Below are positions 9,642 to 57,253 of a stretch of DNA of 64,000 nucleotides, in pieces. The translations under genes and the position numbers were made by a program. This DNA is from a virus. Where the stretch lies: UHGV virus genome UHGV-0125682. One strand, given 5' to 3'. Position 1 is the stretch's first letter, and every line of letters starts with the position of its first letter. Below the pieces are notes generated by a model. It had not been told where the DNA came from. It ran no database searches and was given only the letters and a program-made list of their open reading frames with translations.

Positions 9642-9670
9642 TTGATCTTCCATGTTTTCAGGCTTATATT
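9642..9670 (+). promoter_or_regulatory. sigma70-like promoter for immI-like module 1
   Basis: TTGATC, 17-nt spacer, TATATT, just downstream of operator. Confidence 0.45.
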
Positions 9671-9916
9671 CATGCCGTCGTAGCAAATTCTGCGACCGGG
9701 TTTGACAGCCTGAATACTTACGCGGACAACCGCACATTTCCGATATTGCGGTATTTTTGTGTCCGTAAAACCACGTTACGCCCGAATTATGGTGGGGCGT
9801 GATGGGGAGGCTTCGGCCTGCTGGTTTCGTAAGTGCCAGTCTGTCAACCCTGTCACGTCCTGCCACCTGTTTGACAGCGGGTCGCAGGTTGTTTATCAAC
9901 TTACGAGGCCGTAACT

Positions 9917-21767: not shown

Positions 21768-21904
21768 CACAATTCGAATGTATTGATTGTGAAGGTAACT
21801 TAACATAGAATTTTCCTTGCTGGTGGGCGGTACCCACGTTTCGCTTGCTGGGCTTGATAGTCACTTATTGGTTATTGTTCGCCCACCAGCATTTAACAAA
21901 TTAA

Positions 21905-22982: not shown

Positions 22983-23059
22983 GATGGTGTAGCTCAGTAG
23001 GATAGAGCAGCAGCCTTCTAAGCTGTCGGTCGGTGGTTCGAATCCACCCACCATCGCCA
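22983..23059 (+). tRNA. tRNA-Arg (anticodon UCU)
   Basis: Manual cloverleaf fold: 7-bp acceptor GATGGTG/CACCATC, TTCGAAT T-loop, anticodon loop CTTCTAA, encoded CCA. Confidence 0.85.
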
Positions 23060-23061
23060 AT

Positions 23062-23137
23062 GCCGGTTTAGCTCAGTTGGTAGAGCGCCTGCCTTGTAAG
23101 CAGGATGTCAGCGGTTCGAGTCCGTTAACCGGCACCA
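23062..23137 (+). tRNA. tRNA-Thr (anticodon UGU)
   Basis: Manual fold: acceptor GCCGGTT/AACCGGC, anticodon loop CTTGTAA, T-arm AGCGG-TTCGAGT-CCGTT, CCA. Confidence 0.85.
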
Positions 23138-50003: not shown

Positions 50004-50315
50004 AACACTGACTGTTGCGCCCTGGCATTATCGTGGGGTATATTTCTACGGCACCTTAGAAAAACGGGTGCCGGGATTGGAACCCCGGATAATGCAAAAG
50101 GCGACACAGACGCCGAAAGCGTCTTTTTTTGTGTCATGCCATCGCACAGCCATACGTAGCGTTTAGCTCAGAGATCAATGGTAGTGCTGGCTGGGCTGCC
50201 GAAAGGCAGGCCGGTTCCCTTTTGCGCCGGTAGTTCCAACCCAGTCAGTGCTACCGCCATTGAGATTGGAACCTCACGCGGTAGCTCCTTAAATTAGCAA
50301 AAGGAGGCTGCCAAT

Positions 50316-52876: not shown

Positions 52877-53092
52877 GTAAACAAAATGAAGTTTTATGTT
52901 ACAAAAACAATCAACTACATCAACATGATTTAGGCCAAATTTCGGTCAAAAAATAAAATCCACAAAAAGTGGTTGACACTATTTTGGAAATCACAAACTG
53001 CACATAATCCATCGCGCTAACGGCTCCCGTTGAAGGTTCTTTTGACGATTAACTTTCAGCCGAAGCGCGGTAGGGAGTCATAACGCCAAAGC

Positions 53093-53117
53093 AGGCCGCC
53101 ATGTGCGGCCTTTTTTT
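53093..53117 (+). terminator. intrinsic terminator with no upstream plus-strand CDS
   Basis: aggccgccatgtgcggcct hairpin plus T7. Confidence 0.6.
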
Positions 53118-53144
53118 GTATCCGTCATCCGTGGAGGAAGGACA

Positions 53145-53798
53145 ATGGAAAAGATCGCAATATTCAGCCTGACCACCAGCAAGCCTCAAATGCTCACTGC
53201 AATACTGAAAGACGGTGCTCTCATTATTAACGAAGTAAAACCCCTTCCCGCGTCAGCATTGGAGCAAAAGCAAAAAATTCCTCCAGCCATAGCAGCCCTG
53301 CGGAAAAGCAAATTTAAGGTACTGGTAGACGAAATTACGCCAACGATCTCCGCTGGCACCGGAGCAAGCCAGGTGACTCTCAAGACCCGTCATGCCGATG
53401 GCAGAGCAGCAATCATCGTCGGGATGGAAAGATACAGAGAGTTAAAACTCCAGAAGCTATTATCCCTGCCGCAAAATAACAAAGGTGCTTTCGAAATCCC
53501 CGACTCTATCGTTGATACCGAATACAACGGTAACGGAGAAGAAGTCTACAGGGTGAACTGGCAGGATATCAGGCCGGAGCATATTCTGATGATCCTGTGT
53601 TGCTACGCGACCGTATACCACAACGTTGCCAGTGCGGATTACGTAGAGCAGATGACCGGTACAGTCGATAAAGAGCAAAAAACAGGCATACTCGCTTCGT
53701 TCCTTTCCATTATTGGGCATGAAAAAGTTAAAGCAGGCACCTCCCAGCCAAAGTCACTGGCTGGGAAAGAAGTTGATGAAGATACCGTGATACTTTGA
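53145..53798 (+). CDS. hypothetical protein (start reassigned to MEKIAIF with GGAGGAAGG RBS)
   Basis: ORF; track start 53103 overlaps the terminator. Confidence 0.55.
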   Translation: MEKIAIFSLTTSKPQMLTAILKDGALIINEVKPLPASALEQKQKIPPAIAALRKSKFKVLVDEITPTISAGTGASQVTLKTRHADGRAAIIVGMERYRELKLQKLLSLPQNNKGAFEIPDSIVDTEYNGNGEEVYRVNWQDIRPEHILMILCCYATVYHNVASADYVEQMTGTVDKEQKTGILASFLSIIGHEKVKAGTSQPKSLAGKEVDEDTVIL

Positions 53799-54126
53799 TC
53801 ACATTAGTAGCTTTGTTAACTCCCTCAATACCAGGTAGAAGAGTAACAAAAATATTGACGCCAGTATTTGAGTGGACAATGAAGCGTTCATAAACAGATC
53901 AATTAGCATTAATAATTCGAAGATAACATCCATGTCATGCACTCCGTTTAATTTTTAATCTAATGCCAGCAAATGAAGCTGGCCCCCGCATAAAGATTAA
54001 TGAAAGTCACTTGTCACCAGTGAGGGGATTTATGAACCACATCCCCCTGAACTGGTGGCCTGTCTGTTTCTCGCATTTCACACCCTGCATACAGTTTCCC
54101 CCAGGTTATGACTGAGGGGCTTTGTT

Positions 54127-54456
54127 ATGGGCTATAGCAGACTCGACGATAGGTACATTGAAGACGATATTTTTCGTGCGCTGTTTCACCAGGAAATGAT
54201 TAAGCGGGTATCGGAGTATCACTCTGATAATTTCCAGTACACGATAAAGATTGATGAAGTATATCGTTCAGACCTTGCAGCCTACAGGGCGTATGGCAAT
54301 GCAGATTTGCGCTGGGTATTCCGGGTGCTGGTGGGCCATGAGTCAGAAATGGAAGAAATGCCCGCCGGGACCACGTTAACTCTTCCTGATGTGGCATGGC
54401 TGAGGAACAAGATCCGTGATTACGCGAGCGCGGAACCGGAGATAGAAAATGCCTGA
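54127..54456 (+). CDS. hypothetical protein
   Basis: ORF, overlaps next gene. Confidence 0.5.
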   Translation: MGYSRLDDRYIEDDIFRALFHQEMIKRVSEYHSDNFQYTIKIDEVYRSDLAAYRAYGNADLRWVFRVLVGHESEMEEMPAGTTLTLPDVAWLRNKIRDYASAEPEIENA

Positions 54457-55639
54457 TTTCCTGAAAAACCAGGACGGGCGCTATATCACTGACGGTCTGT
54501 CCTCTAAGGACTTCACGCGTTTATTCGACCTTATCAGGAAAGAACAAACCCGTAAGCGCCGACAAGCTCACCGGACGCTGACGCCAGGCAGACTTAGGAA
54601 CAAATCCGCCGAAGATATTCTCAAGTTAGGGAAGAAAAAAGGCGGCACGTTCTTTACGCGAGACGATCTGAAAGGCTTCGAAAAGCTACGGAGTAAAACG
54701 CGCGAAAAATATGACAGCAAGACGGCTGGCATCACATACGCCCAGCTGGTGGCATCCAGCCAGGCTATCGATATTAAGCGTGCAAATAACGCCGTGGATG
54801 ACGGATCTGGTATCAAAAGAGCTACACCCGTATCTCTTCGCCACAATGTGATTAATATCCGCGTAGAAGCATCGGATATATCCGTCCACCAGCACCATAT
54901 CGTCCGGATACGCTTTGAAGAATGGGATCAGATGGTTGATGATATCGCAGAAGACGATAAATCAGCTCTCAAAATCACTAAATCACTGTGCGCCGGGCGA
55001 GTGTCTTTCGATTGTGACTGTGGTCGTCATCAATACTGGTATCGTTACATCGCCACTGCGGGTAACTTTGCCCTGGCACCGCCAAAAGAATACGCCTATC
55101 CAAAAGTTCGCAACCCGAAGCTGCAAGGCGTCGCCTGTAAACACGTGATCCACTCAATGACGCGGTTACAGTCCGCCAGTTGGCAAATGAGTATTGCTCG
55201 TGCGCTACAAAAGGCTGCAACGCAAATTGCATTTGGTGACGATCGCCGCCGTACAACCAAACACTTCTCAAAAGAAGACGAGAAGGAGTTTAATCGCAAT
55301 CGTAGCAGTAAAACGAACGTTGACGCTGCCAAGCGAGAATGGAGGCTCTATCAGAAGCGCCAGGCCGCTTTAAGCACAAAACTGGCAAAGGACAACGGCA
55401 AGATTGACAAGCTACGTGACCAACTGACCAAGGCCAGAAAGTTGTCAGACGCACAGAAAAAACGGGCGGCAGCAAAAGAAGCGGCGTTGCAACGTGAGAA
55501 ACAGAAAAACAAGGAGCTTCAGCAACGCCTGGCCGATCAGTTCGCACTGAAGAAGCAGGCGTTCATTGATGCGCTTGTCATGGCTGGAACACCACCAGCA
55601 CAAGCTGAAAAAATGTTCATGGAGTACATAAAAAATTAA
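54449..55639 (+). CDS. hypothetical protein with CxC...CxH (SWIM-like) zinc-finger motif and basic coiled-coil tail
   Basis: FDCDCGRHQYW...GVACKHV. Confidence 0.5.
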   Translation: MPDFLKNQDGRYITDGLSSKDFTRLFDLIRKEQTRKRRQAHRTLTPGRLRNKSAEDILKLGKKKGGTFFTRDDLKGFEKLRSKTREKYDSKTAGITYAQLVASSQAIDIKRANNAVDDGSGIKRATPVSLRHNVINIRVEASDISVHQHHIVRIRFEEWDQMVDDIAEDDKSALKITKSLCAGRVSFDCDCGRHQYWYRYIATAGNFALAPPKEYAYPKVRNPKLQGVACKHVIHSMTRLQSASWQMSIARALQKAATQIAFGDDRRRTTKHFSKEDEKEFNRNRSSKTNVDAAKREWRLYQKRQAALSTKLAKDNGKIDKLRDQLTKARKLSDAQKKRAAAKEAALQREKQKNKELQQRLADQFALKKQAFIDALVMAGTPPAQAEKMFMEYIKN

Positions 55640-55641
55640 CA

Positions 55642-55666
55642 AAGGTGGGTTTATCCCACCTTTTTA
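55642..55666. terminator. bidirectional intrinsic terminator
   Basis: aggtgggtttatcccacct hairpin flanked by A and T runs. Confidence 0.65.
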
Positions 55667-56382
55667 TTAGCATCGCATTTAATTTTTTCAAGTGAATCAG
55701 AAAGCTTTGAGAGAAGCTCCTCAAGTGTTTCCCTGTCATTTGTATCACCCGAACGAAAAGATGAGTTTTTCACGGCGGTAAAAAATTCATAAAAATCATC
55801 CACCGAATTTAAGCTCTCACCTTTCTCTCTATATAATTTAATAATATGAATGATATCGCTATCCACACATTCAATCTGTTTCCTAATTTCTTTAAGCCGT
55901 TTTTCTAATGATTCAAGTTCTTCTTCTTGTTCAATATACTTTTTAACGTCTCTCTGCTTCTTAATGGCTTTCTTAATATCACTGTTAATTGTCCTTATTT
56001 GTTCTTTTTTATTTGCAATTTCATCTATTTTTCTTAATTTAGCATATAATGTGCTTGTCACCAAAGAAATTAACAGGGTTAACAGTGGCGCTAATATTGA
56101 TGCCACAACACCATAAATAAAAGGCAAAACAAAATGAGCTACGAACGATGGTAAAAAAAGATTCCCCAATAATGGGATCTTTTCCCCGACAAACACTATA
56201 GATAATGTATACATAACATCATCTTTTGACTTCAGTAATATAAATATGTCTCGCCAATTAGAAATTAAAAACGAAATAAAAATGTAGGCAAAAACCTTAT
56301 TAAACAACTTATCTTTTACAGCATCTTCTAACAGATTTTGGGTAGAGGAGTTTTCCTTTTCTATTGATGAATCAGCGCTCAT
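55651..56382 (-). CDS. AT-rich membrane-anchored coiled-coil protein
   Basis: About 32 percent GC by eye versus roughly 50 percent for the phage; two transmembrane helices then Lys/Glu-rich coiled coil. Confidence 0.55.
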   Translation of the reverse strand: MSADSSIEKENSSTQNLLEDAVKDKLFNKVFAYIFISFLISNWRDIFILLKSKDDVMYTLSIVFVGEKIPLLGNLFLPSFVAHFVLPFIYGVVASILAPLLTLLISLVTSTLYAKLRKIDEIANKKEQIRTINSDIKKAIKKQRDVKKYIEQEEELESLEKRLKEIRKQIECVDSDIIHIIKLYREKGESLNSVDDFYEFFTAVKNSSFRSGDTNDRETLEELLSKLSDSLEKIKCDANKKVG

Positions 56383-56442
56383 ATAATTACCAAATATTTA
56401 AACATTGATTTTATGTAAAAGCGGTCATCCAGACCGCAAAAC

Positions 56443-56802
56443 TTAAACACCAACCAGACTTTCCAGTGGAATACCAAACTGGGCATGTAAACGACGAATC
56501 ATAGGTAACGTCAAATTTCGTGTCCCATTAAGCACTTCGTAAACACGGTTTGACTTACCAATTGCCGGTTCCAGATCCTTCACGGTCAGCCCTTGCTGTT
56601 CCATACGGAATTTAATGGCCTCAATAGGTGATGGTGGCTCAATTGGGTAATGTTTTTTCTCGTACTCCTCAATGAGAAGACACATGACCTCAAAGAAATC
56701 ACCTTCCGGGGTGTTCATTTCCGGTTCGTTATCGAACATCGGTTCGACCGCACGCAGTGCGGCCTCATAATCTTGTTCTGTACGGATAGGTTTAATGTTC
56801 AT
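56443..56802 (-). CDS. higA: HigA-like antitoxin (HTH)
   Basis: C-terminal HTH (GLTVKDLEPAIGKSNRVYEVLNG); downstream of HigB-like toxin. Confidence 0.75.
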   Translation of the reverse strand: MNIKPIRTEQDYEAALRAVEPMFDNEPEMNTPEGDFFEVMCLLIEEYEKKHYPIEPPSPIEAIKFRMEQQGLTVKDLEPAIGKSNRVYEVLNGTRNLTLPMIRRLHAQFGIPLESLVGV

Positions 56803-56805
56803 GAT

Positions 56806-57108
56806 TTACTCCAGTTCTATTGTATCCGCTTCAATGGCATCGTATTCCTTATGTGTTCCAATAAACTTAACGAACATCCATCCTCGCTGATAAGCAATTG
56901 CGACAATTAACCTGTAATCATTTCCCTTAATATTGAACACCACGCGCCTGTTTTTAAGGATGCTGGCTGTCCGGTACTGTTCTTTGATCTCAGCCGGATT
57001 TTTCCAGTCAGCCTTTGTTGCTTCATCAACCCATGCCTTTAATGGCTGTTCTGCATCGGGATTCTTCGCCCAGAAATCCCTTAGTGTTTTTACCGAAATT
57101 ATTTTCAT
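56806..57108 (-). CDS. higB: HigB-like toxin (RelE/ParE superfamily)
   Basis: FNIKGNDYRLIVAIAY...IGTHKEYD matches HigB family; start reassigned to MKIIS with AAGGAA RBS. Confidence 0.75.
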   Translation of the reverse strand: MKIISVKTLRDFWAKNPDAEQPLKAWVDEATKADWKNPAEIKEQYRTASILKNRRVVFNIKGNDYRLIVAIAYQRGWMFVKFIGTHKEYDAIEADTIELE

Positions 57109-57253
57109 CACAGATTCCTTCTCTCTGAAAGCAGAGTAGTCCCAATATGGGACAATGTAAAGCACTTTAGTCCCATGCTGGGATATGAATTGAAATCACA
57201 ATCTCCAGACAATGCACCCTCGATACCTGATAAATCGACCTTTGAGGATGCTT

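Follow-up and report, generated by a model that had tools for sequence, protein, structure and literature searches.

The 64,000-nt stretch of the virus genome UHGV-0125682 analyzed here (hereafter the window, 64 kb) is D6-like and belongs to the P1 group of phage-plasmids. Between its maturation control gene, mat, and tail gene 26 lies a minus-strand reading frame, orf77, which very probably is a genuine protein-coding gene. Our favored account, held with moderate confidence and based on comparative sequence analysis, is that orf77 is a moron-borne gene for an activator-dependent small membrane protein of D6-like phage-plasmids. Morons, as defined for lambdoid phages, are autonomous promoter-gene-terminator inserts between conserved phage genes. 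Over positions 53000-54600 the window shares 98.8% identity with Escherichia phage D6; the same interval has matches of 95-99.5% identity in 100 of 5,426 complete E. coli genomes, all of them plasmid-borne. The gene and its translation signal are as follows.

53799-53933, minus strand: orf77, small membrane-protein gene of 44 codons; an open reading frame (ORF) equal to D6 orf77, with conservation and an AlphaFold2 model behind the assignment.
53942-53945, minus strand: Shine-Dalgarno sequence GGAG, 8 nt from the ATG (TGCATGAC).

The frame opens with an ATG at 53933 and closes with a TGA that is the complement of 53799-53801, giving a 44-aa product (MDVIFELLMLIDLFMNASLSTQILASIFLLLFYLVLRELTKLLM); an alternative in-frame GTG at 53942 would give 47 aa. 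An earlier note on this DNA, made from the letters alone, described a 44-aa hydrophobic minus-strand ORF at exactly this place, and the ORF is present as described. The note also reported a GGAG ribosome-binding site 9 nt upstream; the GGAG stands, as the complement of 53942-53945, and its spacing is corrected to 8 nt. The description of the ORF as unannotated holds in that the NCBI pipeline omits it in most plasmids, but the D6 GenBank record does contain orf77, as a hypothetical protein (YP_009914754). An allelic form is annotated in one RefSeq plasmid (WP_032323274.1), and one source labels the product 'membrane protein'. The product matches PHROG 38362 end to end, with E = 9e-30 for the type-A and 2e-15 for the type-B allele (defined below); this is a family without assigned function, so that membership adds a name only.

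The length of the frame was dropped as evidence for a gene, as an ATG-initiated ORF of at least 44 codons arises in 45% of dinucleotide-preserving shuffles of the 361-nt region. The conservation pattern, in contrast, does exceed chance. The orf77 region was recovered from 24 viral contigs, one Escherichia sp. genome and several plasmids; plasmid pSa1423-160k (L036) was excluded as an error-ridden assembly in which every gene is frameshifted. Conservation in relatives had been put forward in the earlier note as a test of the ORF, and the frame passes it: all 21 distinct sequences recovered without disruption by an insertion sequence (IS) keep the 44 codons open, and orf77 is intact in three type-A lineages as well as in type B. 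Among type-A sequences, 12 of the 24 distinct substitutions are synonymous, compared to 6.9 expected when the same base changes are placed at random (p = 0.019). By this test the orf77 frame is the best of the six, the other five having stops or mostly non-synonymous changes. In comparison with the CP085065 lineage, which is 85% identical, orf77 has an omega of 0.27, compared to about 0.04 for mat, 26 and 25.

A second allele, type B (MNIFNKLIDLLNKFISASLTQQVSTSVFLLLFYLVLRELTKLLM), supplies the strongest evidence for coding; it is found in about 16 plasmids, including L004 and L037-L039. The C-terminal 17 codons of the two alleles are nearly identical DNA, while the N-terminal 27 codons have 48% nucleotide identity, a near-random level amounting to saturation, with length and frame equal. 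Over these 27 codons the ungapped BLOSUM62 score is 43, a value reached by none of 20,000 shuffles. The N-terminal differences are distributed 18/6/18 over the three codon positions (6 of 42 at position 2, p = 0.00025), and six identical residues are encoded by different codons. The polar/hydrophobic periodicity of the N-terminal helix is retained between the alleles and its net charge is altered. Because the substitutions are frame-specific and the diverged alleles remain similar as proteins, we conclude that orf77 is, with high probability, a real protein-coding gene.

An opposing explanation is that orf77 is not a gene but a chance frame within a regulatory spacer consisting of the mat 3′ untranslated region, a terminator and a promoter, with its conservation arising from constraint on DNA or RNA. 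The ease with which shuffled sequence yields a frame this long and the usual omission of orf77 by the NCBI pipeline are consistent with such a spacer, as is the adjoining 140 bp, which is 100% conserved for non-coding reasons. The synonymous sites of orf77 are also less diverged than those of the flanking genes, and the Shine-Dalgarno sequence is not universal. The synonymous excess, the sparing of second codon positions and the similarity score unmatched in shuffles are nevertheless hard to explain without translation, and the substitution pattern fits none of the other five frames. We therefore regard a chance frame as very unlikely.

If translated, orf77 would yield a membrane peptide. The AlphaFold2 model, built from the family alignment, consists of a helix at residues 2-16, a kink at A17-S18 and a second helix at residues 19-43, with a mean predicted local distance difference test (pLDDT) score of 94.8. 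The grand average of hydropathy (GRAVY) is 1.5, the most hydrophobic 19-residue segment begins at residue 18, and the hydrophobic moment over residues 1-18 is 0.28-0.56. The product is thus predicted to begin with an amphipathic helix, to span the membrane once by a second helix and to end in a short charged tail, RELTKLLM. The proposal in the earlier note that this is a small hydrophobic membrane-peptide gene is supported by the selection pattern together with the two predicted helices.

Word-indexed searches of 5.8 billion proteins, a tblastn search of 72,556 plasmids and an exhaustive HMMER profile search of 1.84 billion representatives traced relatives of orf77 only to D6-like plasmids of Escherichia, Shigella and Salmonella. 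Likewise, Pfam, NCBIfam, PADLOC and PDB returned no match for the peptide beyond the D6-like family. Holins have one or more transmembrane domains and a charged, commonly basic tail at the C terminus, and their genes lie in a lysis cassette. The orf77 product has one predicted transmembrane helix and a short RELTKLLM tail of net charge 0/+1; no holin family in PHROG, Pfam or NCBIfam matched the peptide, and orf77 does not lie beside lysis genes, with lydA/lydB and the lysozyme gene located elsewhere.

The sequence upstream of orf77 contains a candidate promoter for this gene, and a promoter of a different type directed at the tail operon lies beyond it.

53990-54018, minus strand: candidate P1-type late (Lpa-dependent) promoter, recognized with a position weight matrix (PWM) and as a conserved island.
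54073-54099, plus strand: D6-type late promoter of the gene 26/25 tail operon; PWM score 23.5 bits.

We built the P1 PWM from the annotated late promoters of P1 (AF234172), which follow the pattern gAC-AAGTGACTT-N4-TAnnAT. On the minus strand, the orf77 site comprises GGTGAC (54018-54013), the −22 box AAGTGACTT (54012-54004), TCAT (54003-54000) and the −10 hexamer TAATCT (53999-53994). It can be written GGTGACAAGTGACTT-TCAT-TAATCT, or GGTGACAAGTGACTT-N4-TAATCT in its general form, and transcription is predicted to start near 53987. The site scores 19.6 bits, compared to 13-26 bits for genuine P1 sites under leave-one-out scoring. No other site in the window reaches 10 bits, and no other in the complete D6 genome reaches 12 bits. 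Twenty shuffled windows peak at 10-17 bits, so that none of the 20 attains its score. The box is perfect and is preceded by GAC, as in five of the nine P1 promoters. No −35 element is present at this promoter, the hexamer CACTGG fitting TTGACA at no more than one of six positions. As a promoter of this class it would require Lpa, together with host SspA, late in infection.

Conservation marks out the same site. A 22-nt promoter island is conserved in types A, A2, A3 and B even though both flanks diverge, and it is conserved in the type-B plasmids even with a relE/higA cassette starting 2 nt upstream of the P1-type box. In the B2 and B3 variants the −10 sequence is TAAACT, with the T, A and T positions kept. 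The P1 late promoters LPs, LP23 and LPmat (AF234172) have in common with the orf77 site a 9-bp palindromic box, GAC, a 4-nt spacer, TAnnnT and the lack of a −35 element. The orf77 site is identical to the upstream half of LPs at 14 of 15 positions, and over 18 nt the type-B form does not differ from LP23. Unlike the P1 late promoters, it resides in a D6-type genome whose sole Lpa homolog is 31% identical to P1 Lpa. Use of the P1-type box by gene 26 on the plus strand was ruled out, as no −10 sequence is present in that orientation (CCAGTG). Elsewhere in the window, at 21793-21817 on the plus strand and about 1.2 kb upstream of tRNA genes at 22983-23134, a P1-like box mismatched at one position is followed by a good −10 (AGGTAACTT-AACA-TAGAAT); the score of this site under the full P1 PWM is less than 10 bits.

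The late promoters of D6 itself follow another motif, AAATCACA-N7-TAnnnT, which we extracted from the sequences ahead of its late operons. Sites of this type stand before 23, sit/pmgB, R, prt, the lysozyme gene, darB, ddrB, lydA, 7, 26, lpa and mat. In the window, D6-type sites are at 1473, 5592, 11621 (minus strand), 11641, 26527, 52986, 54073 and 57191, upstream of ddrB, prt, the lysozyme gene, darB, lpa/pacA, mat, 26 and 7. The gene 26 promoter has ATTTCACA at 54075-54082, a 7-nt spacer and TACAGT at 54090-54095. The P1 and D6 motifs differ both in the sequence of the box and in its distance from the −10 element (13 vs 15 nt). No D6-type late promoter for orf77 is present on the minus strand. 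D6 and the window each encode a single Lpa homolog, and neither contains a second Lpa gene. Because the D6 late motif differs and the sole Lpa is so diverged, orf77 is predicted to stand behind an activator-dependent late promoter of the P1 type rather than the D6 type.

A reciprocal arrangement is found in P1. When scanned with the D6-type PWM, P1 (AF234172, L040) gives one strong hit, at 31593-31567 on the minus strand, which scores 24.1 bits compared to a maximum of 19.3 over 15 shuffles. The holin gene lydC follows 35 nt downstream of this site, GGAAATCACAAAGTACATACCGT. SJ46 and vB_EcoM-813R1 retain the motif, with diverged sequence downstream of it, and in P7 it takes the form AAATAACA-N7-TAGGTT within very different flanks. 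lydC, a monocistronic holin gene with an accessory part in P1 lysis, does not belong to the P1 late regulon, and the one promoter assigned to it is a 'predicted early promoter' (PMC9025707). Like orf77, it is a stand-alone small membrane-protein gene with a single late promoter motif of the other lineage, conserved in relatives. The products differ: LydC, of 93 aa, is predicted to cross the membrane twice and has been shown to act as a holin, whereas the orf77 product has 44 aa and one predicted transmembrane helix and shows no sequence similarity to LydC. The reciprocal promoters could reflect cross-activation (exclusion or piggy-back lysis), relaxed Lpa specificity used for timing, or a relic of module exchange.

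The first of these possibilities can be developed into a hypothesis in which orf77 is a sentinel: the Lpa of a rival P1-like phage would switch on orf77 of a resident D6, and the resulting membrane damage or early lysis would abort or exploit P1, with P1 lydC acting in the converse direction. The symmetry speaks for it, D6 having exactly one P1-type late promoter, before orf77, and P1 exactly one strong D6-type promoter, before a holin gene that is accessory in its own lysis and has been assigned an early promoter by prediction only (PMC9025707). Both sites are conserved islands in diverged flanks, the two lineages have distinct Lpa proteins and distinct motifs, and an upstream terminator together with antisense mat transcription (see below) would hold orf77 off during D6 growth. 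Host species are common to P1-like and D6-like elements (bioRxiv 10.1101/2025.09.12.675607). Nonetheless, the hypothesis is inferential: the boxes share 5-6 of 8 positions, so that each Lpa may recognize both, and the reciprocity may be a relic of module exchange between mosaic genomes. orf77 matches no defense family, and natural IS disruptions show that its loss is tolerated. We consider a sentinel role unlikely.

The reading of orf77 as part of a moron rests on the structure of the gap in which it lies, bounded and occupied by the following features.

53145-53798, plus strand: mat (maturation control), from annotation; convergent with orf77, the stop codons of the two genes abutting (TGATCA).
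54127-54456, plus strand: tail gene 26, followed by tail gene 25.
53965-53983, minus strand: stem-loop GCCAGC-N7-GCTGGC at the 5′ end of the predicted orf77 mRNA, predicted in the folds of both strands.
54013-54079, plus strand: imperfect inverted repeat with a U-rich tract, from folding and conservation.

From the mat stop (53798) to the start of gene 26 (54127), the gap spans 328 bp. The earlier note had it as an AT-rich gap of 330 bp, which is right as to the gap but applies to base composition in the left half only: GC content is 34% over 53799-53960 compared to 49% over 53961-54126. A more distant relative, the Citrobacter plasmid pCF5125-2, has no gap here, with mat and gene 26 sharing 4 nt; the 328 bp is therefore an insert specific to the D6 lineage. 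The insert has its own transcription signals, its flanking genes are adjacent in a relative, and its GC content falls to 34%, as would be expected of a moron. The best reading is therefore that the orf77 gap is a self-contained moron inserted between mat and tail gene 26 of a D6-type phage-plasmid. In common with the morons of lambdoid phages, the orf77 unit is a short, AT-rich insert of opposite orientation with its own promoter and a flanking terminator-like hairpin. Classic morons have ordinary promoters and are expressed from the repressed prophage, whereas the orf77 unit has a promoter of the late-activator type.

The inverted repeat incorporates the GGGGAT/ATCCCC hairpin that the earlier note had pointed out in this gap. 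The two arms are found at 54024-54029 and 54041-54046, where they form the inner part of a larger structure with an outer stem at 54013-54021/54051-54059 and a U-rich tract at 54060-54079. The plus-strand fold of 53940-54085 has a free energy of −42.4 kcal/mol (z = −3.3), and the repeat falls within 140 bp that show 100% identity between lineages diverged by 15-22% in the flanking genes. In type B, a canonical terminator (GCGTCACCAGG/CCTGGTGACGC followed by TGCTTTCT) replaces it. We consider 54013-54079 a probable terminator or insulator between the mat-orf77 region and the gene 26 promoter. The gap is a hot spot of further insertion, by IS elements (see below) and by the relE/higA cassette. 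The cassette is carried by all type-B plasmids examined (2017-2745 in L004; L037-L039), where it takes the place of the large inverted repeat and ends in the canonical terminator just before the gene 26 promoter. The smaller stem-loop at 53965-53983 is possibly a stabilizing 5′ hairpin of the orf77 mRNA; in its place, type B has CCAGCTC-N6-GAGCTGG, with another loop and other flanks. As to the strand on which these RNA structures form, the substitutions point both ways: the three found in stems of L030/L033 preserve G-U pairing on the plus strand alone, but one in the type-B hairpin preserves it on the minus strand alone. Two other frames in this region, a plus-strand ORF of 50 aa (53963-54115) and the 27-aa 'orf76' annotated in D6 (54007-54090, minus strand), are probably spurious; both run across the hairpin and promoters, and neither persists in the A2 or type-B variants.

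A scan for intrinsic terminators found none in the gap, including 53799-54012; the large hairpin escapes the scan, having a loop of more than 8 nt. mat has a D6-type late promoter upstream, at 52986-53012, and because no terminator separates its stop codon from 54013, mat transcripts probably continue antisense through orf77. Control of orf77 by this predicted read-through is possible. A hairpin in the mat 3′ end (CCCAGCCA/TGGCTGGG) was evaluated as an orf77 terminator and dropped, as it is not conserved in the CP085065 lineage. At its other end, mat has a leader of about 130 nt (within 52986-53145) with two terminator-like hairpins, at 53018-53032 and 53093-53111, the latter followed by a run of seven T residues before the start codon. 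A similar hairpin is found ahead of mat in the Citrobacter relative (L044, about 940-965). The leader hairpins suggest attenuation or antitermination control of mat.

These elements can be combined into a working model for the moron-borne orf77. The terminator-like inverted repeat would shield the unit from upstream transcription, and orf77, with a promoter lacking a −35 element, would be silent until an Lpa-type late activator is present. Its mRNA would begin with the 5′ stem-loop, followed by the Shine-Dalgarno sequence, and the ORF would end stop-to-stop against the convergent mat. The peptide would insert in the inner membrane, most plausibly as a membrane-perturbing or lysis-timing (holin-like) factor, and transcription of mat from its D6-type late promoter, antisense over orf77, would damp expression. 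The analysis demonstrates the sequence features, how they are conserved and selection acting on the protein; in this model we infer the promoter activity, the responsible Lpa, the membrane insertion and the physiological effect of orf77.

Several observations weigh against this model. The promoter, transcript ends and translation of orf77 are all predictions. The other D6 late operons use AAATCACA-N7-TAnnnT, and in view of this motif and of the diverged D6 Lpa (31% identical to P1 Lpa), D6 may or may not activate the orf77 promoter. The Shine-Dalgarno sequence is degraded in one lineage, reading AGTG in CP085065; GGAG is kept in most type-A copies, L030 has TGAG, and type B has GGA or GGGA at similar spacing. 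In the CP085065 comparison, synonymous divergence (dS) is 0.32 for orf77, lower than the 0.58-2.2 of its neighbors, indicating either an extra constraint at the nucleotide level or a separate or younger recombination history. The family is confined to one plasmid group, making for a shallow evolutionary sample. Finally, IS elements interrupt orf77 in several independent plasmids and contigs, and other copies are frameshifted. Within the 135 bp of the gene, insertions are found at codon 30 (L005, about 1200-2610; P0026; P0027), codon 2 (L027) and codon 37 (P0022), the one at codon 2 being presumably IS2, as recognized from its end sequence. Two frameshift variants (proteins P0024 and P0025) also occur in natural plasmids. 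As disruptions of this kind persist in nature, orf77 is dispensable for plasmid maintenance; they may reflect either an AT-rich insertion hot spot or selection against an intact, toxic gene.

The last possibility bears on another explanation. The earlier note had likened the peptide to type I toxins and proposed a search for an overlapping antisense RNA, which brought up one promoter-like site.

53887-53916, plus strand: weak sigma-70-like site TTCATA-N18-AATAAT inside orf77, the only candidate antisense promoter.

In a type I toxin-antitoxin (TA) system, orf77 would be a membrane toxin curbed by an antisense RNA, either a dedicated small RNA (sRNA) or the mat 3′ end, and would aid plasmid maintenance. 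At 44 aa (below 60 aa), with a GRAVY of 1.5 and a hydrophobic helix, the product is of the size and character of a type I toxin. With hok/sok, tisB/istR, ibs/sib and ldr/rdl it shares a length below 60 aa, a single hydrophobic transmembrane helix, location on a plasmid and probable antisense transcription. With no terminator before 54013, a mat RNA fully complementary to orf77 is likely, and an RNA from the plus-strand site would cover the orf77 start codon and Shine-Dalgarno sequence. Moreover, recurrent disruption by IS elements and frameshifts is a pattern of toxic genes, and in relatives the gap takes up a type II TA cassette.

However, known type I systems have a dedicated antisense RNA gene and a long, structured leader, and orf77 has neither. 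The search yielded no discrete antisense gene: the plus-strand site matches at 9 of 12 positions, a level at which 1 site was found compared to 1.9 expected in shuffles, its −10 varies among lineages, and it has no terminator of its own. Rfam, at the gathering threshold and at E ≤ 10, showed no sRNA or antitoxin family in the gap, only chance hits to small nucleolar RNA (snoRNA) and counter-transcribed RNA (ctRNA) families, and Pfam, NCBIfam and PADLOC contain no toxin family matching the peptide. The predicted orf77 5′ leader is short, about 54 nt, and not unusually structured, the fold of 53988-53799 having z = −0.3 relative to shuffles. The promoter is of the activator type without a −35 element, not constitutive, and D6-like plasmids already have phd/doc and RelE/HigA systems. 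The resemblance to type I toxins thus extends to size and hydrophobicity but not to these other attributes, and we judge a type I TA system to be quite unlikely.

If orf77 is real, automatic annotation misses a conserved small membrane protein in about 2% of complete E. coli genomes (100/5,426), and also in Salmonella and Shigella plasmids, adding to the under-counted phage micro-proteins. The distinct late motifs of D6 and P1, each genome having a single copy of the other's, provide a testable hypothesis of cross-talk, exclusion or lysis timing, and the orf77 and lydC promoters offer a simple reporter system for Lpa specificity. Should the sentinel hypothesis be true, it would represent inter-phage defense or piggy-back lysis that senses a rival's late activator via a decoy promoter.

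Two further features of the window were noted. The tail operon is split by a second insert, at 55651-57165, which separates genes 25 and 7; in P1 these two genes adjoin. Within the insert are a very AT-rich 243-aa ORF (55651-56382, minus strand) of about 30% GC with hydrophobic segments, a helix-turn-helix protein and a HigA/RelE-like pair. There are also two C4 antisense RNA loci, at 9664-9870 and 50051-50261 (Rfam RF01695; 69.6 and 76.7 bits), one with a c4-a1b1 target element and the other with an isrK-like RNA. Each lies ahead of an icd/ant-like pair, and the element therefore has two immI-type immunity regions.

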